A stretch of DNA of 45,582 nt, taken from contig JBGAIN010000051.1 of assembly GCA_044225505.1 (NCBI GenBank), forward strand, positions 1-45,582, given 5' to 3'. Source of the stretch: Limisphaerales bacterium. GTDB lineage: Bacteria; Verrucomicrobiota; Verrucomicrobiia; Limisphaerales; SIBE01. The stretch's first letter is position 1. Each line of letters starts with the position of its first letter. Both the position numbers and the translations under genes were made by a program. Below, piece after piece: positions 9,084 through 44,496 of this stretch. The notes below the pieces were generated by a model. That model saw nothing but the letters and a program-made list of their open reading frames with translations. It was not told the DNA's origin and made no database searches.

Positions 9084-9179
9084 CCATTAAGTGACCCCTC
9101 GCGAGGGGGCGAGCTCCGCTCGAGTTGGGGTTCGACGGTGGCTCTTTCTGGTCCGCCGATATCCTCAGGAGGGTTTCAA

Positions 9180-9208: not shown

Positions 9209-9214
9209 AAGGGA

Positions 9215-9907: not shown

Positions 9908-9924
9908 TTGGTTTCAGAAACTTA

Positions 9925-9940
9925 GTGAGTGATCATTCAC
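9925..9940 (+). promoter_or_regulatory. Second TetR operator copy upstream of the efflux operon
   Basis: GTGAGTGATCATTCAC matches GTTAGTGATCACTCAC (9190-9205) at 14 of 16 positions and lies 25 bp before the MFP start. Confidence 0.7.
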
Positions 9941-9964
9941 CGACCGTAAGGAGCTTGCAGAGTT

Positions 9965-11155: not shown

Positions 11156-11185
11156 CTCGGTGAGCTTACTTATACCTCAGCGCCC

Positions 11186-20614: not shown

Positions 20615-20620
20615 GACGCT

Positions 20621-27885: not shown

Positions 27886-28890
27886 ATGAGATACGCTGTC
27901 GCTGCCTGTCAAACGGACTTTCCTTGCCCAAAGGGCCGAAGTGAGATCGCCAGCCGGGTGGACCGAATGCTGGCACTGATCGACGGGGTGGTCATTGGCT
28001 ACAAACCATTTTTCCCAGTGCGCCTGGTCGTTTTTCCAGAGTTCGCCCATGCCGCGCCCATTTATCTGACGGTCGATGAGCTGCGTGAAAAGCTAGCCGT
28101 GCCTGTGCCGAACGAGCATACGGACCGCTATGTCGCGAAGGCCCGACAACATGGCGTTTACATCCAAACGGGGACCTTTATCGAGGCGGATCCCACCTGG
28201 CCAGGGGTGCTCTTCAACACGACCTGTCTTGTAGGGCCAGACGGAGTGCTCTCCAAGTATCGCAAAGTGAACCCGTGGTTGCCCTGGGAAGTGCACGCCA
28301 GTCCTCACGATCTCCCGGGCTACGACGTGGAGATGTTTCCCGTGGTCGAAACCGAGATCGGGCAGCTCGGCTGCGCTATTTGCTACGATTGGATTTTTCC
28401 GGAGGCCATCCGTCAACTGGTGTTTCACGGGGCGGAAGTCTTAATTCGCGTGTCGGCATATATGGACCCTTGGGGAGCGACCCCGCCGCTCGATTGGTGG
28501 ACCGTGGTCAACCGCTGCCGCGCCTTGGAGAATATGGCTTACGTGGTTGCGGCGAATCAGGGAGCGACCCTGCAGCATTACGGTCCGTTTTCTTGGCCGG
28601 GCGGGAGTATGATTGTTGATTTCGACGGTCGAATCCTCGCGCAAGCGGATCCAGGCCCGGGAGAGAAGATTGTGGTAACGGAGATTGACTTGGGCGCACT
28701 GCGCGAAGCGCGCGCCTCTCGACTGGGACATAATCCGCAGGCTCATCTGCGGCGGGAAGCCTATCCCCAAGCTCCGACCGGTTATCCGCATGGCAGCTTC
28801 ACGTCGGCGAAGGATCCCAAAGGGAACCGGACGGTGCCGGAAAACGAAGCGCTTATCCGCCGAGTCCTTCGACCGGTCCGACCTGTATAG
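27886..28890 (+). CDS. Nitrilase-superfamily carbon-nitrogen hydrolase (amidase-like)
   Basis: Glu-Lys-Cys triad motifs LVVFPEF, KYRKVNPW, AICYDWIFPE; RALENMAYVVAAN; GGSMIVDFDG. Confidence 0.92.
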   Translation: MRYAVAACQTDFPCPKGRSEIASRVDRMLALIDGVVIGYKPFFPVRLVVFPEFAHAAPIYLTVDELREKLAVPVPNEHTDRYVAKARQHGVYIQTGTFIEADPTWPGVLFNTTCLVGPDGVLSKYRKVNPWLPWEVHASPHDLPGYDVEMFPVVETEIGQLGCAICYDWIFPEAIRQLVFHGAEVLIRVSAYMDPWGATPPLDWWTVVNRCRALENMAYVVAANQGATLQHYGPFSWPGGSMIVDFDGRILAQADPGPGEKIVVTEIDLGALREARASRLGHNPQAHLRREAYPQAPTGYPHGSFTSAKDPKGNRTVPENEALIRRVLRPVRPV

Positions 28891-28903: not shown

Positions 28904-30655
28904 CTACTCTTCCCGTTCGTTGTCGAAATCGCGGAAGGAACAATTACAGGGCGTTCGAAAGAGGAGCACCCAATCTTCGGCCGTGGGCGTTTTGTAGACG
29001 CGGGATCGGAGTGCGCGGGCGTTTCGCATGCCGCCGTCGCGCGGGCTGAACCACAATGGCTTGAGCTGATCTTTCAGAAGCTCGTTCTTAAGACTCACAA
29101 TGCCACCGTCCCGAATATAGATCGCGGCGAGATCGCCATCGGCACTACGGGCGGCAAACACCGGCACCGTCGTTGTAGTCTTGGCTTTGGCTTTCGGATG
29201 AGGCTGAACGGCAGTAACGAGATTAGTGTCCGGAAGGAGTCTCCACCAGGGAATGCCGGTGAAAAAGTCGTAGATGTGCCCGTAAAGCTCGAGCATCGCG
29301 GAGTTCGTATCCCCACGACCGTTGATCCAGCCCCCGCACGCGTTGGAGGCTTGACCTGGCCTCGGACTCGCCCGTTCGCCAGTCGTTTGATATCCACCGG
29401 CAAGGTATATTTCCCACGCCAAGCGAGCCCGTGTCTCGGGTGCGCGCGCCGGAGATTTGCGGTCGCTGCCCCAACCCTGTGGATAGTGATCTTCATAGCC
29501 GTATTCCTCATTGACCTGCGGAATCACCCGGCCAGTTTGTGCCTGGACCAGCCGGTTGGTCAGCATGAAGCCATGTCCGCCAGATTCGTCCCAGGCCTGA
29601 TACATCGCGAAGTCCGCCCAACGAGACTTGCCGAAATGGAAGTTATCAAAACCATGCGTGGACGTGAGATGGTTATAGGGATCGCACTCTTTTACAAACG
29701 TCCCCATCCCTTCGGCCCAAGCGTCGTCGCGGAACATTCGGTATTCATTGGCCAGATCCCACATGACATTGCAGAACGGAGCGAGACGGGCGATGGCATA
29801 GCGATAGTAGCGCCGTTCGTCTGCGCCCCCCATTCCTGCCTTGCCAAATGGATCAACACCCGGGCGGCTGCCATCGACATAGAAAATCACCGACACGGCG
29901 ATGTCCTTCGCCCGGGCGCTTTCCAGCAAGTGTTCCCACTTTTGCCAATAACCCACGTTGAACCGGGTCACGTCGAATTCCGGGGACTTCACACTCTTCG
30001 GGTTCTTCGCTTCCCACGGGTTGAGGAGGAAGGAAAACTTTTCGGTGGGGTAAACGTCCTCAAACCAAGCGCGGCCGTCCTCGACTCGTCCACTTAACGC
30101 GGCCCGGAGCCGGGTCACTTTAAGTCGGTCAAATCGATCGACGATCTGTCCAATGGTCTCAGCGTCCCAACCCGCAAGCCAATAGGCCGTTGTGCCATTC
30201 CAGAAGAACCGTTCTTGGGTCCCTTCCCATCGAAAGTGCGACGGATACTCTGCGTCGACTCGGAGCACGCCGCGTTTCTTGGCATCAATGGCCTCGAAGC
30301 GACCCTCGTAGGACCGGGTCAACACTGCTTCGCGGTAATTGACGACATACGTGTAGTTGCCCGCGATCGAGGGCATGAAGCGGATCCGAAAGGTGCTTCC
30401 GTCCGCGGAGTCACAAAACCCATCGACTCGGACGGCGGGCGAGCCTGGGATGCCAAACGCGCCTTCGACGATGACATCGGTGAAGGGGTTCGCGACTTGA
30501 GTCCCCCTCGTCCTGAGCGTGATCTCGAGGAACTCGTAGCAGCTGACGCGGTTGGTCGACGGTTCGAATTCAACTCTGGGCGCGGCGATGGCGCATGGAT
30601 TCACCAAGGCGCCTAATTGCACAGCGATCAGGATCCAGGAATATGCAGTTTTCAT
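28904..30655 (-). CDS. Secreted DUF5060/DUF4038 (apiosidase-like) protein
   Basis: Signal peptide from ATG 30655; NPFTDV, GFCDS.DG..FRIRFMP, FFWNGTTAY, YAIARLAPFCNVMWDLANEY, NEEYGYE, WFSPRDG. Confidence 0.75.
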   Translation of the reverse strand: MKTAYSWILIAVQLGALVNPCAIAAPRVEFEPSTNRVSCYEFLEITLRTRGTQVANPFTDVIVEGAFGIPGSPAVRVDGFCDSADGSTFRIRFMPSIAGNYTYVVNYREAVLTRSYEGRFEAIDAKKRGVLRVDAEYPSHFRWEGTQERFFWNGTTAYWLAGWDAETIGQIVDRFDRLKVTRLRAALSGRVEDGRAWFEDVYPTEKFSFLLNPWEAKNPKSVKSPEFDVTRFNVGYWQKWEHLLESARAKDIAVSVIFYVDGSRPGVDPFGKAGMGGADERRYYRYAIARLAPFCNVMWDLANEYRMFRDDAWAEGMGTFVKECDPYNHLTSTHGFDNFHFGKSRWADFAMYQAWDESGGHGFMLTNRLVQAQTGRVIPQVNEEYGYEDHYPQGWGSDRKSPARAPETRARLAWEIYLAGGYQTTGERASPRPGQASNACGGWINGRGDTNSAMLELYGHIYDFFTGIPWWRLLPDTNLVTAVQPHPKAKAKTTTTVPVFAARSADGDLAAIYIRDGGIVSLKNELLKDQLKPLWFSPRDGGMRNARALRSRVYKTPTAEDWVLLFRTPCNCSFRDFDNEREE

Positions 30656-30662
30656 CGCAAGT

Positions 30663-32084
30663 TTACGGAGAGTGTGAGGTGCCAAACGCATTGTGGGTGT
30701 ATTCCGTTCGCCCGGATCGCCAGGTGGCCAGCCCGACTCCCGCGCGACGGTTTTGTCCCGTGCGATCAAAGTCAATGGTGCCAGCAATTCCTGTCCAAGG
30801 CGTGAGCTGGCTTAGTGTGGCTCGCAATTGAGAACGGTTCGGACCCGTCTCGCTCAACGCCCTAAGAAGCAGACGAGTCGCGTCGTAGGTCAGCAGTGCC
30901 GCATAATCCGGGAGATGTTGTCGTTCGGTCACAAATCCCTCGACGAACCGTTGCGCCTCTGGCTGAGCGAGATCCACGAATCCTAAGAGAGGAAAGCAAA
31001 CGCCCTCACAAAACCGGCCGGCTAATTCCTGGAATTCGGATCGCGCCATGGCCGGCCCTCCAAAGACGGTGGGGGGCAACGACGCCGGTCCGTCCGGGGC
31101 ATTGCCCGGTTCGCGACGCTGGACCGCGCGGACGAGATGGGCGGAGTCGGGCAGATTCGCGATAATGATGACCACAGCGGGCTCGGTTTGATGGAGACTC
31201 GACAGAACGCCTCCGAAATCCGATCGGTGGGGAGTGAGCTCGAAGTGGAAATCCGGCGGGTGTTGCCGTCGGGAAAGTTCGTGAATGACAGCGCGTGTTG
31301 TCATGCGCGACTCGTGGTCTGTGGTGCTAATCAGGGCGAGGCGGCCATGACGCTGTTCCATCGTAGCCAGAACCGATCCGACTAGCGCGTGGGCAATCGC
31401 GTCGTCTGATGGCGCACATGAGAACATCCAAGGCACGCCGGCCAAGGTCACTGATGGGTCGGTCGCAATCGGACTGATCAAGGGCAAGTTCGCTTTGGCC
31501 ACAATCTGTTCAGCGAGATGGGTGGATGCCGAATCGATCGAGCCCATTAAGGCGGCTGGCCGTTCCTCATAGACCATGCGCGCCAATTGGGCGACACCGG
31601 TCCCCCACGGATTGTCCGACCAACGCGCAACCAACTGAAAGTGTGTGGCCGGGGCATTTTCCGGGCTTTTCAAAGCCGCCGCGACGTTGGCATCCTTCAC
31701 CGCTCGGTTCGCCGCCCACCACATATCCTGAGCCATTCGGTTCGTGCTGTCGACAGGCCCAAACCAGCCTATTCGGACTTCGGTCGAGGACACCAGGTCG
31801 TCTCCTGGATCGTTATAGTGGAAGGGGAGTTGACGGAGGTTTCGGTACGGCAATTCGCCCGGAACGGTCGCCCGCGGGCTCTCTGCGGTGGGTTCGCTCG
31901 GGAACGCGTGGTCCAGGGTGAATAGCGCCAGCCAAACCAGGGCGTGATGCACCGTGCGCCGGGTGCCACTCCAAGCTCGCTTCGCGGACAGGGAGCTCGA
32001 ATGCATGCGCTTTACGCCCGCTGCGGAAAAGCTGTTGAATGATGACCCTGTCACAACGTCGAATTCCACAGAAGAGACCGGCAC
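30663..32084 (-). CDS. LivJ-like (type I periplasmic binding fold) substrate-binding protein
   Basis: VRIGWFGP, MGSIDSASTHLA, PLISPIATDPSVT, AALLTYDATRLL, GIAGTIDFDRTG. Start may be ATG 32006. Confidence 0.8.
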   Translation of the reverse strand: MPVSSVEFDVVTGSSFNSFSAAGVKRMHSSSLSAKRAWSGTRRTVHHALVWLALFTLDHAFPSEPTAESPRATVPGELPYRNLRQLPFHYNDPGDDLVSSTEVRIGWFGPVDSTNRMAQDMWWAANRAVKDANVAAALKSPENAPATHFQLVARWSDNPWGTGVAQLARMVYEERPAALMGSIDSASTHLAEQIVAKANLPLISPIATDPSVTLAGVPWMFSCAPSDDAIAHALVGSVLATMEQRHGRLALISTTDHESRMTTRAVIHELSRRQHPPDFHFELTPHRSDFGGVLSSLHQTEPAVVIIIANLPDSAHLVRAVQRREPGNAPDGPASLPPTVFGGPAMARSEFQELAGRFCEGVCFPLLGFVDLAQPEAQRFVEGFVTERQHLPDYAALLTYDATRLLLRALSETGPNRSQLRATLSQLTPWTGIAGTIDFDRTGQNRRAGVGLATWRSGRTEYTHNAFGTSHSP

Positions 32085-32091
32085 AGTTGCG

Positions 32092-33582
32092 TTACTCGTT
32101 CTCGTTTTCCTCGCGTTCTCGGCGCATTTGTTCTACGACATGGCCGCGCGGTATCCCCAACGCCTCACGGGAGTAGTAATTCCAACTGCCTTTTTCAAAC
32201 TTCGCGAGATAGACTTCGCCACCGTCATCCAGGGCTGAACTGAGCGGAATCTCTCCAGTCACACCTTCAAACGGTTCGGCGCGGTAAGCTAAGACATCGC
32301 GAATCTTCGCCCGATTGAGACCTGCGGTTTGGATCGCCCAAATCAACATGTTTGCTCCATCATAAGCGTGGGCAGCATACGTGCTCGCGGGAACTCCGTA
32401 ACGCTCCAGAAACCCCTTCCGAAAGGCATCGAGTTTCGGATCTTGGCGATTGGGATTCCAGGGATAACCGCAAATGACCCCATTCGCGTTCGTTCCAGCA
32501 ATCTGGACAAACTCGTCGGTCACCGCCCGATCACATGTCAGAAACGGCTGGTCGAGACCGCGGGAACGCATGGCATTCAGAACGCGCGCTGCGTCGTCCC
32601 CGTTGCCCCAATGAAAGATGACGTCGGGCTTGTATTCCGCGATCCGGTCGAGCTGCATATCAAAGTTCGTGCTGCCCACCTTGTAGGCCATTTCGATGAC
32701 GCTAGGGTGTCCCAGGCGCCGACAGCTATCCCTGATCTCGCGGACTCCAAAGCGGCCATAGCGATTGCTCGATCGGATGATCGCGGGCCGTTGGTATTTC
32801 ATCTTGCGTAAGGCGAAGTCGACGAGGATGTAATTGAGTTGTCGATCGTCGCCAATGCAACGCATTACCCATGGAATGTTGGTCTCGATATAGGTGGGAT
32901 CGAGATCCCCGGGGGTCATCCAAGGAATCTCGATCTTAAGCGCGACGCGGATGGCGATGTGGGTGTTCGCTCCATCAATACCGCCGATGATGGCCCAGAC
33001 ATTGTCTTTGTAGGCCAGATGAATCACTTCGCTCCCGGAGGCACCCCAGAGCGCGTTGTCGTTGCGCACGCATAACTCAAATGGGATCTTACGCTTGAAA
33101 TAGCCGCCCTTGGCGTTGGCTTCGTCGATGGCCATGCGGATGGCCTGGAGCATGGCGATTCCCAATGCTTCTTCGTTGTGGCTCCGGCCCCCGGTCGCCA
33201 CTGAGACCGTGGGCATGATGGGGCCCAAAAACCCAATCTTTACCGTATCCACGTGCTCAGGCTCCGGGATCGCTCGTCCGGATCCCGTATACTCCATTTG
33301 AACGAGAAAGTGCTCTTTGAATGGCTTTACACCTCCGTACGGTTCCACGTCGGACGAAGAGTGGGCGTAATTGCTGTTGGTCTTGAGCGGCAGGGCCAGA
33401 GGTTCATAGGCACTGATGCCCTCCAGTTGTTTGAGGATGTCTTCGACTTTGACATCGTCCGGGCGGAGCGGTTTGTCTGAGGCCGGTGCGGTTGGAGTTG
33501 CGCTCTGGGCAAACCCCAAACCGAGGCAGAGGCTGGTGCTAACGAGAGCGGCCAGCGAACGGATCAGGCGCAATCTAAGCAT
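32092..33582 (-). CDS. LivJ-like (type I periplasmic binding fold) substrate-binding protein
   Basis: Signal peptide; VKIGFLGP, MAIDEANAKGG, AIIGGIDGANTH, NRYGRFG, AAHAYDGANML, FEGVTGEI. Confidence 0.85.
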   Translation of the reverse strand: MLRLRLIRSLAALVSTSLCLGLGFAQSATPTAPASDKPLRPDDVKVEDILKQLEGISAYEPLALPLKTNSNYAHSSSDVEPYGGVKPFKEHFLVQMEYTGSGRAIPEPEHVDTVKIGFLGPIMPTVSVATGGRSHNEEALGIAMLQAIRMAIDEANAKGGYFKRKIPFELCVRNDNALWGASGSEVIHLAYKDNVWAIIGGIDGANTHIAIRVALKIEIPWMTPGDLDPTYIETNIPWVMRCIGDDRQLNYILVDFALRKMKYQRPAIIRSSNRYGRFGVREIRDSCRRLGHPSVIEMAYKVGSTNFDMQLDRIAEYKPDVIFHWGNGDDAARVLNAMRSRGLDQPFLTCDRAVTDEFVQIAGTNANGVICGYPWNPNRQDPKLDAFRKGFLERYGVPASTYAAHAYDGANMLIWAIQTAGLNRAKIRDVLAYRAEPFEGVTGEIPLSSALDDGGEVYLAKFEKGSWNYYSREALGIPRGHVVEQMRREREENENE

Positions 33583-33615
33583 AGGACATCAAAGGGGTTG
33601 AGTGAGCCGAAAGTT

Positions 33616-34804
33616 TCAATGGGTTCGCGCGGTGGCGGAGACGGGCTGAGGAGTTCGCAGGCGCGGGTAATATCCTTGACCGACGCCGTGGCCGATTCCT
33701 TTTGAGGTCCCGATCCAGACGTCAGGTCCATCAAAATCGATGCAGATGATGAAATTTTGCGGCACGTTATACCCTGTGTTCACCACCTGCAGGAGTTCGT
33801 GTCCTTGTTTAATCACCGCTTTTCCCGTGTGATTCTTGCCGTCGGAGGTATACGCGACCCACGTATCCGTCTCCGCATCCATGCAAGCACCCGCGCCTTT
33901 GTCTCCCGCAAACCAGCATTCCTGCGCGCTCCGCGCCTTGATGTTGTTGTTGAAGTTGCTGGGCAAGCCGCAATCGTGATCGAAATAGCCGCGCCAATGC
34001 CGGCCGTCATAGCGAGCGCACCCGAAATAGGACGAAATCCACAGCACTTTCTCGATGTAACTCGCGCCTGTGACGATCACGTGGACGTTGCCATCATCCC
34101 GATAAAGGTCGATTTCCATCTCGCCATCCGGGTCCAGATACACCTTCCAATTTTCGGTTTTGACGTCGTACTCGAGCACGCCGCTGCCCCAGACCGCCAG
34201 GTGCACCTTGCCATCACAGGCACTCACGTTGTAGTTCCAGATCTCTTCCATGGGGGCATTTTTTTCTGTAAATACATCCCAGTGGTCGGTCTTGGTATTG
34301 TAACGGCTGGCACCGGCGGTTGTCGCGCACCAGACATGGTCGCCTTCCAGAGCAATCGCGTAGACCACATCATTGACCAAGCCGCTGTTGAGTTGATGAA
34401 AATGATCGAAACGCCCGCCCGTAAAACGCGCCAAGCCACCCCCAAACAAGCCCAACCAGATATCCCCGGTTCTCGGATCCACTTCGATCGCCGTAATCAC
34501 GCGCCAGGGGAGTCCGTCCTTCTCACCCCAAGTTTTGATTTGCCGTGTCTTCTTGTCAAAGCGGGCCAAGCCGTTTTCAGTGCCAATCCAAATACAATCG
34601 CGTGAAGGGTCGGCCTTCAGGCGAAGATGTGGTCGTTGGGAAGGCCTGCTGCGTTGTTAGTTGTTCCCATTGGGTATAGACGTATGCGGCATTGGCCGTT
34701 CTATCGCAGGAGCAGCTTTGCCATCGCTGGGGTCGGCGGTGGCGCTCGCCGAGACGAGAGCGCCCAGCGAGGAACGTCGCGTCGAGGAATCGCAGCATTT
34801 TCAT
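33616..34804 (-). CDS. Secreted beta-propeller protein (two-component-regulator propeller repeats); 5' part disrupted by indels
   Basis: Repeats IWIGTENGLARFD, DGLPWRVITAI, IWLGLFGGGL, SGLVNDVVYAI, VWIGTSKG. The upstream pieces (signal-like segment, YVYTQWEQLT, GLPNDHIFA) are spread over three frames in 34620-34804; start at 34804 is tentative. Confidence 0.72.
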
Positions 34805-34847
34805 AGAAGACGTGAACATTATCGGCCGGGAATCCGGGCCGGGACAG

Positions 34848-37711
34848 CTAAAGCGTTTAAGATATTCCACCAGATCGTTTAATTGGTCTTTGGTCATGTC
34901 GTTGGTCACTCCGTGCTGGTCGTAAGGATTGTAAACCGTCCAGATCTCCTCCAACGTCTGCGCAATCCCGTTATGCAGGTATGGTGCGGAATCGTAGATG
35001 TTCAACAAATGCGGCGCATCAAACTTGCCCGTGCGGTCGTAGGCGAACTTGGTGCCGACATCGTGAATCCTACCGTCGGTGTAGAGAGGCGGCGGATGAC
35101 AGGTGTGGCAGCGGCGATCCAGTGGAATGATCGATCCATCATTCTTGCGCGTCCGTTCGAACATTGCTTTGCCCCGGCGCTGGGCTTCGGAGAGGTCGTC
35201 TCCCAGCTTGCGATAACGATTGGGCGGGCGCGGGATGGTGCAAAGATAATAGTGCAAATCATCGAGTTGCTCGGACGTGAATGGCTGGATCCGAGTGATG
35301 AAGACCGCCAAGCGCGGACCGCACTGACGCCTGAGGCTTGGGTTGATTCCGATCCATTTGTAGGGAGCCATGTCATTGATCCCGCGCAACGTCCGGTTGT
35401 CGATTGGCCCCATGCCAATGCCATCATCCTCGATATCGTAAACGATGTTGTCGATGTGCCCATCGGGATGACAACTGCTACAGGAGAACTGACGCCGGAA
35501 GGCCACGTCGGCGCTATGAAAGAGCTTCTCACCACGTCGGCGTTGGGTCATCTCCTTGGAGCCACCCAAGTCGATCCGGCCCGCCATCTCCAGCTTTTTC
35601 AGATCGATGACGCTCACTGAATCATCGAGCATGCTCGCCACGTAAGCCGTTGCTCCGTCTTTGGAAATCAGAATGCCGTGCGGCGCAGTTCCGACAGCGA
35701 TATGCTTCGCGACAAATTCCGCCGGTTTGCCCGTGTGGTTCGGCAGGACGTGCTGCCGTTCTTCCGGTGTTGCGCTTTGAATCAGGGCGATCAGCTTTGC
35801 CAGATCCACCACCGCGACTCGATCTGTGCTGCTGCTGGTCACCAGCGCAAGACGACCGTCCGGTGTGATCGCGACATCGATCGGGTCTGGGAAACAAAGG
35901 TCGTTCTGATCCAGCAGCACTTGATCCACGGTTCCGTCTTTCCAGAATACACCCAAGCCATTGGAAATGGTCCAGCCATGGTTAATCCGTGTCATCGGGA
36001 CCAGATTCTTGGTGCGGAGCAGGGGAAGGAGGGCATACTCTCCGGTCGGATGCCAGGCAATCCCCTGAAGCAGATTGGCGCCGGAAACAACCGCGCGGTC
36101 TTGCACGATACCCTTCAACGCGTCGATCACCATCACTTCGGATTGGCTGGGCTTGCGATCGCCGATAAACCGGGAGAGTGCGTGCGTCACGAGAATTCGC
36201 TGGCCGTCCGGCGACTCTGCCAGAGACCAGGGCGATCGCGACGCGCTCAGACGCCGCACCTCCTTGAGGCTGGCGATGTCAATCACGGACACGTTGTCAA
36301 TCGCTGTATTTAAAACGTATAGGTTTTGGCCGCGTTGATCGACCAGCAAGCCGTGCGGCTCATCTCCCACCTCGATCGTCGCGATCACTTGGTGTGACGC
36401 CACGTCGATCACAGAGACGTTGTCGTCCAGTCGGTTCGAAACGAATGCTCGCTGACCGTCCGGAGTAAAAGCGACATCGTGCGGCTGGCCTCCGACTGTG
36501 ATTTCCAGGATTCGAACGCGGGAGGCCGTGTCCACGACCACGACGGACGAGGAAGCTTCACATGTCACCCAAAGCTCGCGGCCATTGGGCGTTAACGCGA
36601 GATTGAGCGGGTTCTTGTAAGTCGGTTCGGCGGTCGCTACCCGAGTTGGTTTGGTGGGATGCGCGATCTTCCGCACCGCTGCGGTATAATCGAACGGTTT
36701 CCCATGAGCCTTATCGTGGCACGGCGCGCAGGTTTGGGCGTTGATGGGCAAGAGCCCCTTGGTCATGGCTGTGGCCTTGTCGAGCATGATGGCCTCGGGC
36801 GAATAGTCGAGACCTGGACCATGGCACGATTCACATTGCACCCCATCCGTCAGATCAAAACCTTTCTCCAAATGAGTCGTGTCGATGGTCGCGGCGGTGG
36901 CGTGGCATTTGAGGCACTGCTCACTCTTTTGGGGATCGGTTCGAACACCTTCCGAGCGGGCAATTTCAAAGCCCTTCTCCGTGGCAAGCTCCGCATAGGC
37001 GCGGGCGTGCTCCGATCGGCGCCATTGGCTGAATTGGAAGTTAAACTTCGGACCGGTGTGGCACACGGCACAGGCCATCACCCCGACGTAGTGACGCGGG
37101 CTGGATGTCTTGGGGAACTCTTGGGGTTTCTCCAACGTCGGTTTCTCTTCGGGTATGCGATGGGCAATGCGTTGAAATGCTTCTTTGAGCTGAAACGGTT
37201 GCTTCTTCAGCACGGCCTCATGCGAACCTTTGGCGCGGTGGCAGATCATACAGTCTTCTTTCGGGAGAAGTCTGAGACCGTTCGCCAGGGCTCGCGGTTT
37301 GTCTTTCATGATTTCTTCGGTGGCGTACTCGCTGCCCGGTCCATGGCACGCCTCGCATTGCAGTCCGTCCTCCAAATGAAACTCCTCGCCATGCCGCCAA
37401 TCCTCTTCTTCCGAAGCCGTGGCATGGCATCCCAGGCACATCTTGGCGCGGTGCGGTTCTTCTGTAATGCCGCTGAGTTTCGTGATCTCTTTCGCTTCGG
37501 GCAGTGAGAGCGCCGCATACGCCTTGGCATGGGCGGTCAATCGCCACTTGCTGAACTGATGGCCCATGGCGGGGCCGTCATGGCAATGGCCGCACGCCTG
37601 GGCACCGATATAGATCGCTTCTTTGCCGCTGGCATAACTGGCAGCGCGGGCTGGGTGTGCGGACCACAAGAGAAACACGAGGCTGATCCAACCGATCGCT
37701 GGCGTCTTCAT
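34848..37711 (-). CDS. Decaheme fusion: two cytochrome c554-like tetraheme domains + YVTN beta-propeller + di-heme peroxidase/MauG-like domain (HzsB/HzsC-like layout)
   Basis: Signal peptide; 10 CxxCH motifs (CGHCH, CLGCH, CEACH, CMICH, CAVCH, CLKCH, CESCH, CAPCH, CSSCH, CHTCH); YVTN repeats (AFVSNRLDDNVSVID, LYVLNTAIDNVSVID); GEKLF, GKAMF, SAPYLHNG, LNDLVEYLK. Natural end LKTL* at 34848 needs one extra A; as given the ORF reads on to 34577. Confidence 0.82.
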
Positions 37712-37751
37712 GCGGGGTTTAGGGAGGGCGCGTTGAGGTTTTTGCCTGGGT

Positions 37752-39434
37752 TCATGGGGTCGGCGCCTTCACGTTGAGAATCTGGTTCGCTGGAACGTGC
37801 TCAAGCCGTTGTTTCCGGCCATTCGGCCAGGCAATCTCGACCGCATCCGCTTGAGAAGCCTTCCCCAATCCAAAGTGCGGCCGCGGATCACTGCTGGTGA
37901 GATAGCCATTGACAGCGATGACCGGTTGAACCATCGCCAGACCGTGCGCGGTCACCGTGACCGTGGCACCCAAAGCGACCATTCCGGTGTCGGACCGAAC
38001 GGGAACCACCTTGAGCCAGGATTGGCGATTCCCTCCATCATTCCGCAGCAAATGGGGCGCGTTCTGAATGGTGTTCATCACAATGTCGATGTCGCCGTCG
38101 TTATCGAAATCGCCGAACGCCGCACCCCGGCCGACACATTTGGTCTTGAAGAAGTCTCCCGAGAAATCCGTCACGTCGATGAATCGGCCTTTCCCATCGT
38201 AGCGAGCTAGGGTGGCTTCCTCGACGTAGAGATGGTGCGGGTCGCCATTGGCGATGAATAAGTCCAGGTAGCCATCGTTGTCGTAGTCGTTCAGCAGCCC
38301 GCCCCAACCGGTATATTGGCCACAAAGCAGCGCCACGCCAGACTGTGCTGTGACATCTAGGAAAAACCCCTTCTTCACCTGCAACATGAGCGAGCTGTAG
38401 CCCATGTCCGGCACGAGAATGTCCAACAATCCGTTGCGATCCACATCTCCGACAAACGGCCCCATGGAAGATACGCCCTGGCCTCCTTCGCCGAACGCGG
38501 TGCCATTCTCCACGGCCATGTCCTTGAAATGCCCATGGCCATCGTTAATCCAGCAATTGTTGGCCATGGCATCGTTCGTGACGTAGATATCCAAGTCCCC
38601 GTCGCCGTCTAGATCACAAACCACTGCCCCCATGCCGCGACCTGTGGGCTCCCATAATCCGGCTGCCTTCGTGATGTCGGTAAACGTTCCGTCGCCGTTG
38701 TTTCGATAGAGGTTGTCCGGTTGCCCGGGATAGGAGAGAGGTCCCGGGAAGTTGTCGGCTTTATAATACGCGCCCGTGCGTTGGAAAGCTCCTTTATCGT
38801 AGTTGAGGTAATGGACGACGAACAGGTCTAACAGCCCGTCCCCATCCACGTCGAACCAGGGCGCGGAGAGTGCCCAACCCGGGCTGGCCACGCCGGCTTT
38901 AGCCGTGACATCTGTAAATGTTCCATTCCGGTTGTTATGGTAAAGGATGCTCTGGCCGTAATTGCAGACGTAGAGGTCCAGGTAACCGTCGTTATCATAA
39001 TCTCCGGCGGATGCGGCCATGCCATAGCCATCCTCAATTCCCTCAACGCCCGCTTTGTCCGTCACGTCGGTGAAAGTTCCGTTGCCGTTATTATGGTAGA
39101 GCGCGTTTTTGAGTTTTCCTTTCAGATGCCGGCCCCGGTTGTCGCTGATGTCCGGATGCCACCGTCCGTTGACGAAATAGATGTCGAGGAAGCCATCGTT
39201 GTCATAGTCGAAGAGGGCGCAACCCGGCCCGGTCGCCTCGACAATGTTGCTCATTTCCAGATCGCCCAGGCTATGACGGAAGTGGATCCCCGCGGATTCC
39301 GTCACGTCGGTAAACTGCGGCCACGTCGGCTCGGCTGCGAGCGCGCGCGGCGCTAAGGCCAGCACGCCTAACAACGGCCATAGGCCCGGCCCAGATCGAG
39401 AGCATGCGCGGATGAGTCGAGAAGGTGATTTCAT
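37752..39434 (-). CDS. CRTAC1-family FG-GAP/ASPIC-UnbV secreted protein
   Basis: Signal peptide from ATG 39434 (ATGA overlap with upstream stop); FTDVT.KAG repeats, DYDNDG loops, GRGAAFGDFDNDGDID, PHFGLG...IAWPNG. Confidence 0.88.
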   Translation of the reverse strand: MKSPSRLIRACSRSGPGLWPLLGVLALAPRALAAEPTWPQFTDVTESAGIHFRHSLGDLEMSNIVEATGPGCALFDYDNDGFLDIYFVNGRWHPDISDNRGRHLKGKLKNALYHNNGNGTFTDVTDKAGVEGIEDGYGMAASAGDYDNDGYLDLYVCNYGQSILYHNNRNGTFTDVTAKAGVASPGWALSAPWFDVDGDGLLDLFVVHYLNYDKGAFQRTGAYYKADNFPGPLSYPGQPDNLYRNNGDGTFTDITKAAGLWEPTGRGMGAVVCDLDGDGDLDIYVTNDAMANNCWINDGHGHFKDMAVENGTAFGEGGQGVSSMGPFVGDVDRNGLLDILVPDMGYSSLMLQVKKGFFLDVTAQSGVALLCGQYTGWGGLLNDYDNDGYLDLFIANGDPHHLYVEEATLARYDGKGRFIDVTDFSGDFFKTKCVGRGAAFGDFDNDGDIDIVMNTIQNAPHLLRNDGGNRQSWLKVVPVRSDTGMVALGATVTVTAHGLAMVQPVIAVNGYLTSSDPRPHFGLGKASQADAVEIAWPNGRKQRLEHVPANQILNVKAPTP

Positions 39435-41407
39435 GGGGTGGCAGTTTTTCCTGGGCTCCCGGTCTCGAAGGACGCGCTGTACGGGGCTCCGAGGTCGATC
39501 CATTGAATGATCGTCCGGAGTTCTTCCGGAGTCAGCGGTTCCCCTTTGCCCGGCGGCGGCATCGGCGAAATTTTTGCCTTTGGCTTGGCGCGGTCTCCAT
39601 CCCAGAGCCGCGACGTGTTGCGTCCGGTCAGTTGCCACGTCAGCCAACTCGTGCGCGCCTGGCCCGCCTCGACATAGCGGTGGGGCGGTGGACCCGCGGT
39701 TCCATCCGCTTCGTCAAGCTTGAGGAGCGCGGCATAAGCCTTCTGCAAAGCTTCTTCCCCGGGCTTCGATTCGCCCAGGGCGAGCGGCAACGGCGAGTCC
39801 GGCCCACCATGACAGTCCGCGGCCGCGCAATGCCGCTCCAAGATCGGCGCGATATCTTCCCGGAACGAAATGGTCCGCCGCACTCGCGCTGGAAGCACCA
39901 GGCGATCGGATGGCCGGCGCAGTGCCAGGACGTATTCGTTTTCGGGAACCCGTTCGGGATCTTCATGACAGCCAATGCAGCCGCGCTTTTCTTTTGGCTT
40001 CACCCAAATCCAGCCGCAGGTCGCCAAGGCCAATCCTTGCTCGTCCAGACTCTGCAGGAGCATCGGGGTGTCCGCGGGAACTTCCACATTGAATGATCCA
40101 TCCGCTTCGACAGGAGCTTCGCCAATCAGACGGCGTCCGACAAAAGGACCGCGCACCTCCGCTTCGTGAGCGGTCGCCGAAACCTTTTGCCGCACGCCTT
40201 CGATAAACCGCACCTTCTTGACCGTGCCCGGCCGCAGCTGCGACTTGAACCGCGCATCCGCGTCATAACAGTTCAAGCCGTAGAACAGGCCTGTGCCCGC
40301 TTTCGTGTCGACCACCGTGGAGTGTCCATCTGGCCGCTTGCGATTTTCCACGAGCACCGCTTGAACTTCGTGCAACTCTGGCGTGTCAAACACCCGCTCG
40401 CACTGGCGCGAATCCGCGTCGAACGAGACAATGCCCCAATTCTGACGGCCGCTCTTGCTGCGCCGCGCCGCTAGAACCCGGTTGTCGCGCAATGGGGCAG
40501 GGGAACGGAAGAGAAACACCGGGTCCGAGGTCAAGGCTCGGTAGGTCACGTGCGGCCGCTGCGCTTGCACGCACGCGAGTTGTCCCGCACCGTCCGCTGT
40601 GACGCGATCGCTTTCGATGAACACGACTAAACCCCCGGGCGTGGCGCAGGGCATCCATTGGATCGATTGGCCCAGTTCTCCGCCATACGCTTCCATGTCC
40701 GTGCCTTCGACGTGAATGGCGTAGAGCCCAAAACGGGCGGGCCATTCCTGCCCCACGCTGGGCGACCGTTCCGCCGCATAGAGAACTCGTCCATCCCACA
40801 TCTGAAACGGATCCACGCTGTGATTGGGATTAAACGTGACCTGGCGCAGGTCTGTGCCATCGAGTTTCACGTTGTAGAGACTCGAAGCCGAAAGTCGCCC
40901 GAACTCGTTGAGCTCGGTTTCACGGCCGACAAAGACGGTGGCCGCCCACGGTTCCGGAGAGTCCAGGGTGAAGAGCGTCGCGGCGTAGATAGGATGTCGG
41001 GCGTTCATGCGCTCCGGGCTGATGGCCCGCAACCCCTCGCCATTCAGCCCCATTTCCCAAATTCTCCAAATTCCGCCTCTTTCCTTCCTGCCGGCAAACA
41101 ACACATGTTGGCCGTCAAACGAGACATTGGGATCACACGCGGCGTCGAATCCGCCCGAGAGCACGCGCCAATTCCCGTCCGGCATGACGATAATCAGCCG
41201 CGCCTGGTCCATCGCATCGCGCCGATTCCACAGGCCCGACTCGATTTCTGCATCGACCGCTTCGTCTTGAACGGGAACTTGAGTAACGATTATCGGAGCG
41301 GGCAGCGATACCGTGGCCTGCTCTGCCCCCACCTCTCCCAACATCCCAGCGCTCACCAGCAGCGCTGGAACCCAGAGCACGTCGAACACACGCCCGCCCC
41401 AACTCAT
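39431..41407 (-). CDS. Hydrazine synthase alpha (HzsA)-related heme c protein
   Basis: ATG 41407 with GGAGGGGAGG RBS and signal peptide; TolB-like propeller (ACDPNVSFDGQHVLFAG, WRIWEM, DGRVLYA); HZS-alpha middle-domain-like GEAPVEADGSFNVEVPADTPMLLQSLDEQGLA...CIGCHE; C-terminal SFREDIAPILERHCAAADCH...MPP...IQWIDLGA cytochrome domain. Confidence 0.8.
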   Translation of the reverse strand: MSWGGRVFDVLWVPALLVSAGMLGEVGAEQATVSLPAPIIVTQVPVQDEAVDAEIESGLWNRRDAMDQARLIIVMPDGNWRVLSGGFDAACDPNVSFDGQHVLFAGRKERGGIWRIWEMGLNGEGLRAISPERMNARHPIYAATLFTLDSPEPWAATVFVGRETELNEFGRLSASSLYNVKLDGTDLRQVTFNPNHSVDPFQMWDGRVLYAAERSPSVGQEWPARFGLYAIHVEGTDMEAYGGELGQSIQWMPCATPGGLVVFIESDRVTADGAGQLACVQAQRPHVTYRALTSDPVFLFRSPAPLRDNRVLAARRSKSGRQNWGIVSFDADSRQCERVFDTPELHEVQAVLVENRKRPDGHSTVVDTKAGTGLFYGLNCYDADARFKSQLRPGTVKKVRFIEGVRQKVSATAHEAEVRGPFVGRRLIGEAPVEADGSFNVEVPADTPMLLQSLDEQGLALATCGWIWVKPKEKRGCIGCHEDPERVPENEYVLALRRPSDRLVLPARVRRTISFREDIAPILERHCAAADCHGGPDSPLPLALGESKPGEEALQKAYAALLKLDEADGTAGPPPHRYVEAGQARTSWLTWQLTGRNTSRLWDGDRAKPKAKISPMPPPGKGEPLTPEELRTIIQWIDLGAPYSASFETGSPGKTATP

Positions 41408-41982
41408 TCCTCCCCTCCGCGCACCAAAATGGCAATCGCTTCGATCTCGACCAGAAGGTCGCTCCGGCAAATCCGCGCTTGGATCGCGGTGCTCGCCGGA
41501 AATGGATCAAGGCCCAGCGCGTGAAAGAACTCGTTCCGGACCGCGTTAAAGTCATGATAATCGCGCTCGATATCGCGGATGTAACACGTGGTTCGGACGA
41601 TGTCCTGCCACGTGGCCCCTTCGCTTTCAAGCAACCGCGTAATATTATGATACGTCCGCCAGAGCTGCGCCCGGAAGTCTCCTTCATAAAGCGTCTCGCC
41701 TTTCTCTCCGACGCTCGCCGTTCCGCTAATCAGCAACTGGGTTACCCCGCCGGGCAGCTCGACACGCAGTCCTCGGGTAAAAGCACTCCCGTAAGCAGGG
41801 GCTTCGTTCAACACGTCCGGCGCTTTAATCGCCTTCTTTTTCACCGGACGACGGGTCTGCGGCATTTTCTTGATCATCCCAGGCGCGGCATAATCTCCCG
41901 GTGGCAACCCTAACGCACGACGCTCCGTCTTTTCCGCTTCTGTCACATTGCCGTTTATCATCAGTTTCGTCTCGTGATTCAT
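41404..41982 (-). CDS. Rid (YjgF/YER057c/UK114)-family protein, FkbO/Hyg5-like C-terminal motifs
   Basis: SAFTRG, LLISGTASVG, GDFRAQ, NITRLL, ARICRSDLLVEIEAIA. Start may be downstream (41877 or 41865). Confidence 0.85.
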   Translation of the reverse strand: MNHETKLMINGNVTEAEKTERRALGLPPGDYAAPGMIKKMPQTRRPVKKKAIKAPDVLNEAPAYGSAFTRGLRVELPGGVTQLLISGTASVGEKGETLYEGDFRAQLWRTYHNITRLLESEGATWQDIVRTTCYIRDIERDYHDFNAVRNEFFHALGLDPFPASTAIQARICRSDLLVEIEAIAILVRGGEE

Positions 41983-42070: not shown

Positions 42071-42435
42071 TCGAGCTTAACCGCTTTTGCGGTGAAACGG
42101 ACGGCGAAATGGCCAGGTGGAGGTGCCGCAGGGCAGAATGGTGGTGTGCAGGGGTGAAAAGACGGCTAACGAATTGGGCGCTAATGATGTCGTATGGTAG
42201 AATCAGAAGAGCTGTTTATAAGCCACATTCGAGATACGCGATTCTCAGCTTGATCTCACGCAGGATACAGCTGCTGGTTAGAGATGCTTTCTGTCCGCCT
42301 CGATTTCCAACGCCGCCGTCCAGTTCTCCAAGCTTCGTTTTGCTATCGCTTCCTTCCGCAAAAACCGGTGACTAACCTTGACAATACCTCGAATCTTCAG
42401 CTCTGGTGCCTGTTGTAATCAACGACGTGCTTTTC

Positions 42436-44496
42436 ATGAAAGCGATTTCTCTCCTCCTCGGGAGTGTGGTGTTACTAGCCGCTTCCGCGCCACTTTCAGC
42501 AATCGATTCCCGTCTGGAATTAGCCGTGGACGATGCTGGGGCCTGCGTGGGACTGCATGTCGGGGCGGCGCTCCTCGACTGGAGGCCTGAACTCGGATCG
42601 GGCAGTCGTCTGGTGGAAAACGAAGCAAGAAGTTCCACGGCTCAGGCAGAGCGAGTGGACCGTTTCAGTTCTGACGCCAATGGGCTGCGCTGGAAACAGA
42701 CGTTTCGGAACCTCACAGAACATCCGATCGCCATAGGGCCCAGCTTCGAAGTTCATTCCAGCGAAAGCTCGTCCTGGAGGACGCCAGGGCTGCCGCTGGA
42801 GGTGCGAATCTTTTCCAAAGCTGGCTTGGGAGTCACGCTCCTCCAGGCGCCCAACGAGGCGATCTGGTCTAATAACCGCCGCTTGGAGCCTGGAGCGAGC
42901 CTGACCTTTACCGCCTTGATCCGGGCCCATGCGGCCGACTGGCGGCCTGGAATGGCAGCCCTGGTTGCAGCCTACCCCGAGTTCATGAATCCACCCAACC
43001 CTCGCGTCCACCAGGTGGCTGGGGGAGGCGCTTACTCCGCGGCCGAGAATGTTCCTGACATCGACCGGGCCCTCAAGATCGGGTTCCAGGTGAACTGGAA
43101 AGCGAGTTTCGATTTTACCGGGATTGGAGTTTTTGTCGCTCCTTCCCCCGTCCCTGTGGAGACGACGTGGACAGATATTCGCGGTAAAACCACTTCCATT
43201 GCCAAAATGGCGCGCTATGCCACCGCCATGAAGCAGGCGGGATTTCACGTGCTGAACTATTTCAATGTGACCGAGGCCGGTCATGAGATTCAAAGCCGTC
43301 CTCCCCCACGGGTCGCGGAACGGGATGAGGATCTATGGCGCCGCCCGAACGATTGGGTTCATTACGCCATCCGCGATGCCGTCCTGGAAACGGAGAAGCG
43401 AGACCTCCTTTATACCGACTGGGAAGGGTGTGTGGTAGTGGATCCAGCCGAGCCAAAATACCGCGCGCACCTCCGAGATCAGGCGACGCGCCTGGTCCAT
43501 GACATCCCCGACGCGGACGGCGTCTGCGTGGATCGAATGGATCACTTAGGCAAGCTGAATAGGCGCCGCTCGGACGGTCTCGGCATGTACCCCGGATCGT
43601 CCGGAGGCGCCCGGCTGCTCGTCTCCTGGATGGATGTGATGGATGAACTCGGCCCCATCTTTCACAAAGCCGGGAAAGTGATGTTCGGCAATCCCATACG
43701 CCACTATTCCCTAGCGGCTTTCCAGCATCTCGATGGCCTCTATACCGAGTATTGGGATGAACTCGAAGCTTGCGCCATGCTTTGCGTGATCAAACCCCTA
43801 ATCGTTTGGAGCGGAGACTATAGCGACGCCGGTATGCAAAAACTGTTGCACTTTGGCGCCTGGCCAACTTGTCCGATGCCCGGGAACGATCATTCTCAAG
43901 CGCCCGATCCCAGCATCGAGACGATGCTCCAGGATTACGCCCCGATGTTCGAAGCTCTCCGCGGACGACGCTGGGCCTTGCACGCCAACCCCATCCAATG
44001 CCGTTCACCCCAGCCCGCCCGAGCGAATCTCTTTGTCGTTCCAGGGGGTTACGTGGCGGTCGTCACCGATTTGGGCGCCGCGGACTCCACGGTGGTTCAA
44101 CTGCCCGAGCTGCCGCTTCCCTCTGGAGTCGAGGACCTTAAGGCCTGGCAAATAACGCCTGGGCAACCGTGGGCGCCCGTCGCACTGTCCAGACAAGGCC
44201 GCGATTGGCTCGTCTCGATCCCGCTTCGACGCGGATGTGGCATGGTCCGGCTTCATTGGGCTTGGATTGAACCGTTTCAGCGAGGATGGACTGTTCGCCC
44301 CGCGATCCAGTTGCGAACGACTGTGCCCAACGCCCTTTTCCGGGCCACGGTGGACGGCACCCCAGCGATGGCCGATTCTCCCGTTTGGAAGCCAGTTGAG
44401 AATGTGCCTGCGTTACTCGAAGTCCGAACGCGGGTTTGGAAAGATGGCCGACAAGTTGGAGACGAGCTGGTGGCTAATTTTGTCCAGGCGCGCTAG
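42436..44496 (+). CDS. Secreted hypothetical protein, probable glycoside-hydrolase-like TIM-barrel
   Basis: Signal peptide MKAISLLLGSVVLLAASAPLSA; GFHVLNYFNVTE, VVDPAEPKYRAHL, ADGVCVDRMD, LDGLYTEY resemble catalytic strands of clan-D-like hydrolases. Confidence 0.55.
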   Translation: MKAISLLLGSVVLLAASAPLSAIDSRLELAVDDAGACVGLHVGAALLDWRPELGSGSRLVENEARSSTAQAERVDRFSSDANGLRWKQTFRNLTEHPIAIGPSFEVHSSESSSWRTPGLPLEVRIFSKAGLGVTLLQAPNEAIWSNNRRLEPGASLTFTALIRAHAADWRPGMAALVAAYPEFMNPPNPRVHQVAGGGAYSAAENVPDIDRALKIGFQVNWKASFDFTGIGVFVAPSPVPVETTWTDIRGKTTSIAKMARYATAMKQAGFHVLNYFNVTEAGHEIQSRPPPRVAERDEDLWRRPNDWVHYAIRDAVLETEKRDLLYTDWEGCVVVDPAEPKYRAHLRDQATRLVHDIPDADGVCVDRMDHLGKLNRRRSDGLGMYPGSSGGARLLVSWMDVMDELGPIFHKAGKVMFGNPIRHYSLAAFQHLDGLYTEYWDELEACAMLCVIKPLIVWSGDYSDAGMQKLLHFGAWPTCPMPGNDHSQAPDPSIETMLQDYAPMFEALRGRRWALHANPIQCRSPQPARANLFVVPGGYVAVVTDLGAADSTVVQLPELPLPSGVEDLKAWQITPGQPWAPVALSRQGRDWLVSIPLRRGCGMVRLHWAWIEPFQRGWTVRPAIQLRTTVPNALFRATVDGTPAMADSPVWKPVENVPALLEVRTRVWKDGRQVGDELVANFVQAR

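Follow-up and report, generated by a model that had tools for sequence, protein, structure and literature searches.

Hydrazine synthase-like subunits in a conserved gene module of a Limisphaerales bacterium: a putative twelve-heme periplasmic redox complex

To our knowledge, hydrazine synthase (HZS) was long held to have no relatives, and hzsA serves as a marker gene for anaerobic ammonium oxidation (anammox). Here we analysed a cluster of eight genes, g1 to g8, in a 45,582-nucleotide stretch of DNA from a Limisphaerales bacterium (assembly GCA_044225505.1, contig JBGAIN010000051.1; the whole stretch is referred to as the window). The cluster encodes an HzsA-like (alpha-like) protein, g2, and a decaheme protein, g4, in which counterparts of the beta subunit (HzsB) and the gamma subunit (HzsC) are fused. 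An earlier note on this DNA, made from the sequence by itself, had pointed to a hydrazine synthase-like operon outside an anammox gene context.

Related genes have been described in three publications. In 2023, hzsA-like and fused hzsBC-like genes were reported from Phycisphaerae UBA1845, and a broader enzyme family was suggested (PMC10732223). In 2025, "previously undescribed HzsA" was reported from ten phyla including Verrucomicrobiota and counted as anammox potential, with predicted heterotrimers (PMC11828985). Hagglund et al. (Genome Biol Evol, Dec 2025; PMC12758564) sorted co-localised HZS homologs into four clades. In clade I, the alpha gene lies upstream, an FG-GAP/CRTAC1 gene lies between it and a fused beta-gamma gene, and two substrate-binding genes are found downstream. 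The beta-gamma protein of this clade carries eight extra hemes as two c554 domains (four extra hemes in Opitutus terrae). Examples are given from Syntrophobacter fumaroxidans, Aquisphaera giovannonii, Thermogutta terrifontis and Opitutus terrae. The main text of that paper concludes that clade I proteins are not hydrazine synthases and proposes no function for them. Clusters like the present one have thus been counted as anammox potential by some authors and rejected as such by others.

The locus in the window belongs to the published clade I cluster family, as a Verrucomicrobial (Limisphaerales-like) representative. With clade I, as described in the main text of PMC12758564, it shares the gene order, the octaheme N terminus of the beta-gamma protein, the retained gamma Cys165, a Trp at the position of gamma His144 and the absence of Tyr591, Cys303 and His772. 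The earlier note had regarded the complete subunit set together with its accessory genes as the noteworthy part; the set is present, but it had already been described as clade I. The window adds a sensor-type propeller, g5, as a fixed member of the module (9/9 loci), and a CX4CH motif with Met-Pro-Pro at the second alpha heme as a lineage-specific version of that site. The main text of PMC12758564 makes no mention of a sensor-type propeller gene; its figures or supplements may list this gene, Verrucomicrobial members or the CX4CH motif. No functional study of HzsA-like or hydrazine synthase-like proteins, or of bacterial CRTAC1 together with cytochrome and FG-GAP, was found in the literature.

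Two heme subunits and a conserved six-gene unit

The g2 protein is a full-length HzsA homolog. It matched the Pfam model HZS_alpha (PF18582) with 85.4 bits against a cut-off of 26.6 and is organized as a beta-propeller, an HZS_alpha middle domain with the heme motif CIGCH, and a C-terminal domain with the motif CX4CH (CAAADCH) followed by Met-Pro-Pro. When the PDB was searched by sequence, the alpha chain of Kuenenia stuttgartiensis HZS (5c2v_A) was the sole match at E<=1 (8.5e-35), in four stretches across the propeller, middle and C-terminal heme domains. A profile built from 55 sequences matched the same chain with E 6.6e-57. The AlphaFold2 model of g2 had a mean pLDDT of 80.8 and a pTM of 0.83. 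In Foldseek, 5c2v_A was its only full-length match (E 3.6e-38, TMq 0.70 over 759 columns), and the runners-up were TolB propellers (E 1.4e-12). The description of g2 in the earlier note as an HzsA-like protein with a propeller, an alpha middle domain and two heme sites was confirmed in this way, both by the domain search that it had proposed as a check and by the Foldseek match to the Kuenenia structure (5C2V).

Both heme motifs of g2 were invariant or nearly so among 55 relatives. Invariant residues also included P484, E485, P488, E489 and N490, which follow the alpha CXXCH, and P617; M616 was nearly invariant. The second heme motif occupies residues 527-533 and the Met-Pro-Pro triplet residues 616-618 (window approximately 39550-39830). 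CX4CH was present in 115/120 and Met-Pro-Pro in 109/120 of the nearest g2 relatives. At the second alpha heme motif, CAGCH was found in a related Phycisphaerae locus, and neither CXXCH nor CX4CH in an Opitutaceae locus. With CX4CH and a downstream MPP, the alpha relay heme probably has His/Met ligation, and its potential would then exceed that of the bis-His heme in HZS.

The g4 protein consists of a signal peptide, two c554-like tetraheme modules, an HzsB-like seven-bladed YVTN propeller and an HzsC-like di-heme domain. Eight of its ten CXXCH motifs lie before residue 333, and the di-heme domain contains the motifs CSSCH and CHTCH. All ten were invariant or nearly so in an alignment of 53 sequences, and ten CXXCH motifs were counted in 113/120 of the nearest g4 relatives. 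In the Opitutaceae locus, g4 lacks the first c554 module; together with the missing second alpha heme motif, this fits the details given in PMC12758564. In Pfam, Cytochrome_C554 (PF13435) matched g4 twice (E 1.3e-29) and the YNCE/YVTN propeller with E 7.2e-17, whereas CCP_MauG (PF03150) remained sub-threshold with 21.1 bits against a gathering cut-off of 25.6. The PDB sequence search matched g4 to 5c2v_B with E 1.7e-35 (residues 13-347 of 352) and to 5c2v_C with E 2.4e-19; the corresponding values in the profile search were 1.1e-50 and 4.5e-28. The best Foldseek match of the g4 model was 5c2v_B (TMt 0.89), and the best NCBIfam model was the beta-gamma fusion subunit hydrazine_BC (205.6 bits). 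Further matches were obtained to MtrC/MtrF domain II/IV (PF22113, E 3.9e-15) and to cytochrome c554 (1bvb, E 3.2e-6), and weak ones to DmsE-type decaheme models and to CCP_MauG, RoxA-like and MbnH-family proteins. The C-terminal heme domain in gamma also gave weak sequence matches to 1iqc, 3hq9 and MauG. The propeller and di-heme part is closest to HzsB, HzsC and the hydrazine_BC model, and not to unrelated YVTN-CCP proteins, by PDB, profile and NCBIfam comparison and, for the propeller, by Foldseek. A YVTN propeller followed by a di-heme peroxidase-like domain had been predicted in the earlier note, and this layout was found. Among the models named there for this protein, c554 and YVTN scored over threshold, but CCP_MauG did not.

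The HzsA-like and the fused HzsB-HzsC-like subunits share ancestry and fold with HZS, and together they carry 12 heme-binding motifs. The likeness to Kuenenia HZS comprises the three-domain alpha fold, the beta propeller, the di-heme gamma domain, the third Cys-heme link, both alpha heme positions and the export of the proteins. On the other hand, the window proteins have 22-26% identity to their Kuenenia counterparts, beta and gamma are fused, eight hemes are added and the gene order is reversed, with alpha first. The added hemes resemble Nitrosomonas cytochrome c554 (1bvb/1ft5) in their tandem tetraheme modules and in the PF13435 match; unlike that cytochrome, they are N-terminal domains of a larger subunit and not a free carrier from hydroxylamine oxidoreductase (HAO).

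A scan of species-representative genomes with g2 yielded 12 loci, with which the window proteins were then compared by tblastn. Eleven of these loci are labelled Verrucomicrobiota, including that of the isolate Opitutaceae bacterium EW11, and one is from a Phycisphaerae metagenome-assembled genome. Every related locus that reached far enough kept a core order of alpha-like gene, CRTAC1-like FG-GAP gene, decaheme beta-gamma gene, sensor-type propeller gene and two genes for LivJ-like binding proteins (g2 to g7). Thus, g3 was found in 12/12 loci, g4 in 10/10 of those continuing past g3, g5 in 9/9 past g4, and g6 and g7 in 7/7 past g5. The most conserved gene of the module was g3 (61-83% identity in 12/12 loci), followed by g5 (63-80%), g6 (63-76%), g4 (57-73%), the alpha-like gene (44-61%) and g7 (39-50%). 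The RidA gene, g1, was located upstream of the alpha-like gene in 3/10 loci with upstream DNA (L017, L025 and L028), and g8 followed g7 in 3/7 loci (L025, L026 and L028). Both are variable, and g8 is a passenger outside the core. The co-encoding of structural counterparts of all three HZS subunits, as put forward in the earlier note, is therefore seen not only in the window; their co-occurrence is conserved in other genomes.

In the window, the open reading frame (ORF) listing gave eight close-packed ORFs on the minus strand at 28904-41982, with an even composition of 56-60% G+C throughout. ATGA on the minus strand was read at 41404-41407 and at 39431-39434, so that g1/g2 and g2/g3 each share four bases. 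By longest-ORF coordinates, the successive gaps from g1 to g8 are -4, -4, 40, 7, 33, 7 and -125 bp. The last value stems from an upstream TTG start, and a later ATG would give an overlap of approximately 9 bp. The tight packing and both ATGA junctions were as previously described. The unit of eight genes stood only in part: the eight ORFs adjoin, but the conserved unit comprises six genes, to which g1 and g8 are sometimes attached. As read by eye, all cluster proteins except RidA have signal-peptide-like N termini. A promoter and terminator scan was uninformative for this phylum, with 2 hits against a shuffle mean of 5.1 and 10 against 14.4, respectively, and thus fewer hits than in the shuffles.

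The module is rare and patchy, at approximately 1% of the genomes sampled in each of two phyla. Orthologs of g2 (E<=1e-50) were present in 3/301 genomes sampled from the phylum and in 6/61 relatives, the window genome being included in both counts. Among the relatives, they occurred in both other genomes of the genus, in 1/10 genomes from the rest of the family and in 2/48 from other families of the order. Close orthologs of g3 (at least 56% identity) were found in 5/401 Planctomycetota genomes, and two of them adjoin a weak match to the HzsA model on the same contig. Metagenome protein collections hold many members of the family: the best 120 matches each for g2, g3 and g4 share at least 53-71% identity. 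At NCBI, proteins of this kind already go by "HzsA-related protein" and "CRTAC1 family protein".

Comparison with true hydrazine synthases and anammox genomes

The window proteins were scored with the NCBIfam equivalog models for HZS subunits (NF052339, NF052342, NF052340 and NF052341). Scores were 159.5 bits against a cut-off of 800 for alpha, 205.6 against 1250 for the BC fusion, 159.4 against 560 for beta and 82.1 against 625 for gamma, i.e. 4-8 times below the cut-offs. True HzsA reached 1518-1606 bits in 17/401 sampled Planctomycetota genomes; the next best score was 244, so there was no continuum between the two groups.

The functional residues of HZS were then compared in an alignment of six true HzsA sequences, ten clade I sequences and four paralogs from the same genome as the window. 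According to PMC12758564, Cys303 and His587 form a zinc site, Tyr591, four residues past the CXXCH His, is the proximal ligand of heme alpha-I, and His772 is the distal ligand of the bis-His heme alpha-II. Cys303 was present in 6/6 true HzsA and in none of the ten clade I sequences and four paralogs; in the pairwise alignment of g2 with 5c2v_A it falls in a gap. The motif that includes the His of heme alpha-I reads CH[YD]GSY in 6/6 true HzsA and CHE[DN]PE, with no Tyr591, in 10/10 clade I sequences. His772 was conserved in 6/6 true HzsA, whereas in clade I the stretch reads MPP[PTAK][GD][KL] and the His position is a gap. The window protein accordingly lacks Tyr591 and the zinc site of the Kuenenia enzyme, and its alpha-II ligand is probably Met in place of His772.

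In the gamma subunit, Cys165 forms an unusual third covalent bond to heme gamma-I (PMC12758564), and a distal role at this heme is given for Asp168 (bioRxiv 10.1101/2023.01.22.525020). Cys165 aligned with C797 of g4, which was invariant (n=53), and the third heme link is kept. His144 aligned with W786 and Asp168 with L801; both replacements were invariant, as was R800 near the gamma heme. Through the equivalence made in PMC12758564 and the alignment to HzsC, W786 would fall at the position of the Trp in CCP/MauG. This residue pattern is the same as that reported in PMC12758564, where gamma Asp168 is not discussed in the main text.

In a maximum-likelihood tree, anammox HzsA, the window clade and the paralogs of the genome were split with 100% support each. 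With midpoint rooting, the window clade was nearer to anammox HzsA than the other paralogs were. The phylogenetic comparison suggested in the earlier note thus placed the window clade apart from true HzsA.

The genome is 9.0 Mb in size and 95% complete, and it encodes four heme-copper oxidase (COX1) family genes. No HzsA equivalog was found in this 95%-complete genome with the NCBIfam model, and the best match to the hydrazine dehydrogenase (HDH) model NF052343 reached 64.1 bits against a cut-off of 900. The absence of HDH, noted earlier for the window, extends to the genome. Its sole PF13447 multiheme cytochrome (486 aa; 63 of 900 bits with the HDH model) is located on another contig (C335:68500-73000), where it adjoins a DsrP/NrfD-like membrane protein (409 bits, over cut-off).

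Five further HZS_alpha proteins and three further beta-gamma-like proteins are encoded elsewhere in the genome (contigs C165, C328, C32, C22, C179 and C115). One adjacent alpha/beta-gamma pair lies next to a histidine kinase. The members of a second pair flank FGE-sulfatase-like, Dak1/Dak2 and DeoC genes under an IclR regulator. A fusion to an S9 peptidase/esterase domain was seen in one alpha-like protein. These loci were rejected as further copies of the same system, with 23-29% identity and no CRTAC1, propeller or binding-protein genes. The HZS scaffold is widely reused in this heterotroph.

By residues and genome content, the locus is not evidence for anammox, and its enzyme is predicted to make no hydrazine. 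The apparent loss of most HZS catalytic residues weakens, without excluding, the case for nitrogen chemistry. The window provides an independent residue-level check in a Verrucomicrobial member and backs the rejection in PMC12758564. By description, the Phycisphaerae UBA1845 genes (PMC10732223) and the genes from ten phyla (PMC11828985) resemble the window in that an HZS-like alpha gene adjoins a fused beta-gamma gene in organisms other than Brocadiia. In these two reports such genes are weighed as possible new anammox, against which the residue tests and the genome content of the window speak. HZS_alpha matches outside Brocadiia should not be read as anammox.

Proposed function and alternatives

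We consider it likely that the module encodes a periplasmic 12-heme redox complex of non-hydrazine chemistry, as a member of the clade I family. The earlier suggestion of an uncharacterised periplasmic redox enzyme is in its core supported by the subunit homology, the heme motifs and the genome content. The six core proteins would be co-transcribed and exported, and the two heme subunits would form an HZS-type periplasmic complex with two catalytic and two relay hemes. One catalytic heme would be a CCP/MauG-like gamma heme, with the third cysteine link kept, Trp for His144 and Leu for Asp168. The other would be an ordinarily His-ligated alpha heme lacking Tyr591 and the zinc site. The octaheme chain may wire the gamma site to the periplasmic or respiratory electron pool. 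Redox chemistry on a small periplasmic substrate would accordingly be expected, with no hydrazine made.

For this redox complex, we tentatively suggest a reaction that reduces or detoxifies a small N- or O-oxide such as NO, NH2OH or H2O2. A more detailed version is speculative and on balance doubtful. In it, the six genes would encode a hitherto unrecognised periplasmic enzyme in heterotrophs, aerobic or facultative, that share their habitat with nitrifiers. NO or NH2OH would be turned over at the gamma heme, with electrons from the octaheme chain; at the alpha heme, the product would be handed on to a small amino or amide compound brought in by the two LivJ-like proteins, or joined with it. 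Such an enzyme would detoxify or scavenge N-oxides, or would carry out N-N/N-O bond chemistry of a kind that yields no hydrazine. If this is true, the module would open a biochemical way into NO and hydroxylamine turnover by heterotrophs and into the ancestral function from which HZS arose. The function of the family is testable in the cultured carriers Opitutus terrae PB90-1 and Opitutaceae bacterium EW11, and would show what hydrazine synthase evolved from.

Several points weigh against a small-substrate redox complex or its details. Both the substrate and the direction in which electrons flow are conjecture. The rare and patchy occurrence of the module argues against a core respiratory function. 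With the distal Asp168 lost, proton-coupled reduction of NO at the gamma heme, as in HZS, is less likely, and the presumed Trp between the gamma hemes, a hallmark of CCP/MauG, would fit peroxide-driven oxidation equally. The pocket geometry is weakly modelled at both sites: the alpha heme loop 476-489 and residues 737-809 of g4 have a pLDDT <50, and the gamma domain was matched by sequence alone. The window copy of g5 reads frameshifted and would be restored in other assemblies. Our order of preference is N- or O-oxide turnover, then a MauG/CCP-like oxidising role, then an electron conduit.

In the oxidising alternative, the gamma di-heme site would be activated by H2O2 or O2 and would oxidise or cross-link a protein or organic compound, which might be bound by the LivJ-like proteins, the propellers or the alpha-like subunit, while the octaheme domain drains or buffers electrons. 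The invariant W786 in place of gamma His144, reported likewise in PMC12758564, the loss of Asp168 and the weak CCP_MauG, RoxA-like and MbnH-family matches are in line with it. The same applies to the probable His/Met ligation of the alpha relay heme with its higher potential, and to the two orphan binding proteins and RidA, of an imine deaminase family, in or beside the module. The two-heme layout and the weak C-terminal matches, and probably the Trp between the hemes, are also what the gamma domain has in common with di-heme CCP/MauG proteins. From these it differs in its CCP_MauG score below the cut-off, its extra Cys-heme link, its fusion to a propeller and an octaheme domain, and its HzsA-like partner. 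HzsB and HzsC are its best matches by far, and the third Cys link is specific to HZS. Furthermore, a protein with a known cofactor site that could serve as substrate is not evident, and RidA is present in only 3/10 related loci. We regard an oxidising system of this type as unlikely.

It is improbable that the 12 hemes simply pass electrons among periplasmic partners, or exchange them with an external acceptor or donor, while no small molecule is converted at the HZS-derived sites. Eight of the 12 hemes do form a c554-like chain, with additional MtrC/MtrF domain II/IV and weak DmsE-type matches, and the HZS catalytic residues are lost. However, the invariant P484, E485, P488, E489 and N490 in g2 and C797, R800 and L801 in g4 suggest a conserved pocket, and no outer-membrane porin or quinol dehydrogenase gene was found in the module by Pfam and neighbourhood scan of the window.

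A real hydrazine synthase, and with it a cryptic anammox metabolism outside Brocadiia as argued in PMC11828985, is very hard to reconcile with the data and already largely refuted by the residue tests. The full syntenic subunit set, the retention of all heme motifs and of gamma Cys165, the heterotrimers predicted for such homologs in that paper and the position of the window clade nearer to anammox HzsA in the midpoint-rooted tree speak for it. Against it stand the five residues that are not conserved (Tyr591, Cys303, His772, gamma His144 and Asp168), the scores far below the equivalog cut-offs, a host with no HDH and no anammox pathway, the heme-copper oxidases, and the rejection in PMC12758564 on the same residues, Asp168 apart. 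That the genes are mere neighbours with no joint function is highly improbable: g1 and g8 are variable and a complex prediction for the alpha-like protein and g3 gave no verdict, but the six-gene order is kept across two phyla in every locus reaching far enough, and the gaps are tight, with two ATGA overlaps.

Accessory genes, the g4/g5 junction and the surroundings

The features of the cluster are listed in Table 1. We regard the CRTAC1-like protein, the propeller and both orphan LivJ-like proteins as likely to assist the presumed redox complex or to handle its substrate. For g3, Pfam matches to FG-GAP_3 (E 2.8e-52) and UnbV_ASPIC (E 2.2e-21) and a PDB match to cartilage acidic protein 1 (9etn, E 8.6e-25) were obtained, and it shares 76% sequence identity with a protein of Opitutus terrae PB90-1. 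A complex prediction for alpha-like residues 40-500 with CRTAC1-like residues 36-560 gave no verdict (score 0.00), which is evidence neither for nor against binding. The g5 protein matched Reg_prop (E 1.5e-5) and the periplasmic domain of a hybrid two-component sensor (4a2l, E 3.3e-26). Of the two binding proteins, g6 has an N-terminal extension of approximately 100 aa and matched 4gnr (E 2.1e-18) as well as LivJ/LivK, and g7 matched 3hut (E 2.4e-10). No ABC permease or ATPase gene was found in or beside the module by Pfam and neighbourhood scan of the window. The RidA protein g1 has a conserved N-terminal extension of approximately 70 residues and shares 64-79% identity over nearly its full length with its homologs in the three related loci carrying g1. 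The g8 protein matched PF16586 (E 1.3e-14), PF13204 (E 4.3e-12) and PF12904 (E 1.4e-5), a domain set that we take to be that of GH140-type hydrolases.

Table 1. Features of the hydrazine synthase-like gene cluster, with coordinates in the window
Feature	Coordinates	Strand	Remarks
g1, RidA/YjgF-family	41404..41982	-	192 aa; PF01042 (RidA/L-PSP) E 6.3e-20; no hydrophobic signal segment (by eye)
g2, HzsA-like (alpha-like)	39431..41407	-	658 aa; PF18582 HZS_alpha E 4e-24
g3, CRTAC1-family FG-GAP propeller + ASPIC/UnbV	37752..39434	-	560 aa; signal peptide
g4, decaheme beta-gamma-like	34850..37711	-	954 aa in relatives; window ORF 34577-37711, 1044 aa
Error-rich or variant stretch, g4/g5 junction	34600..34860	.	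indels vs contigs of other runs
g5, secreted "two-component regulator propeller"	33616..34840	-	window open frame 317-346 aa, ORF 33616-34569
g6, type I periplasmic binding protein, LivJ/HAAT-like	32092..33582	-	496 aa; Peripla_BP_6 E 1.7e-38
g7, second type I periplasmic binding protein, more divergent	30663..32084	-	473 aa (longest ORF); Peripla_BP_6 E 5.2e-29
g8, DUF5060 + apiosidase-like + collagen-binding-2 glycoside hydrolase	28904..30787	-	PF16586, PF13204, PF12904

At the g4/g5 junction, the window sequence departs from that of its relatives. In relatives (approximately 955 aa) and in a database protein with 99% identity, g4 ends at residue 954, and fragments of the g5 N terminus are spread over three frames in the window. 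Contigs of four sequencing runs were compared with the window, three of which cover the stretch. The contigs of X1, X4 and X5, from two studies, concurred in the same eight indels relative to the window at 34619-34855, with exactly matching flanks, and the X2 contigs break on either side of this interval; a comparison of contigs leaves a minority strain variant possible. The runs carrying the stretch are labelled bioreactor and activated sludge metagenomes. By frame arithmetic, the eight indels would restore both the g4 stop and the g5 frame. The 1044-aa ORF of g4 is an artefact. In our reading, 34600-34860 is a patch of assembly errors or variant sequence in the window and not a sign of gene decay; it is because of this patch that the g4 stop is missing and the 5' end of g5 is frameshifted.

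Two more CRTAC1-like FG-GAP/ASPIC genes, one of them with an N-terminal TPR (1194 aa), are located on the plus strand at 22406-27873 and converge with the module. In the Opitutaceae (L026) and Phycisphaerae (L027) loci, both have homologs no more than 10 kb upstream of the alpha-like gene, and these genes may be loosely linked to the module. A carbon-nitrogen hydrolase gene (27886-28890) and a 696-aa ORF (42406-44496, plus strand), which is divergent from the module and had no Pfam or NCBIfam match, were rejected as module genes, as neither had a match in the 12 related loci. Further away, a 5-oxoproline cluster occupies 17602-22317 on the minus strand. It encodes a pyroglutamyl peptidase, DUF979 and DUF969 membrane proteins, a LamB/YcsF protein and two carboxyltransferase-domain proteins (PxpA/B/C type), and its final two ORFs overlap by approximately 170 bp by longest-ORF calling. 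On the plus strand at 9125-15902, a TetR regulator gene is followed by an RND efflux set consisting of a membrane-fusion protein, an AcrB-family pump (1149 bits) and an outer-membrane factor.

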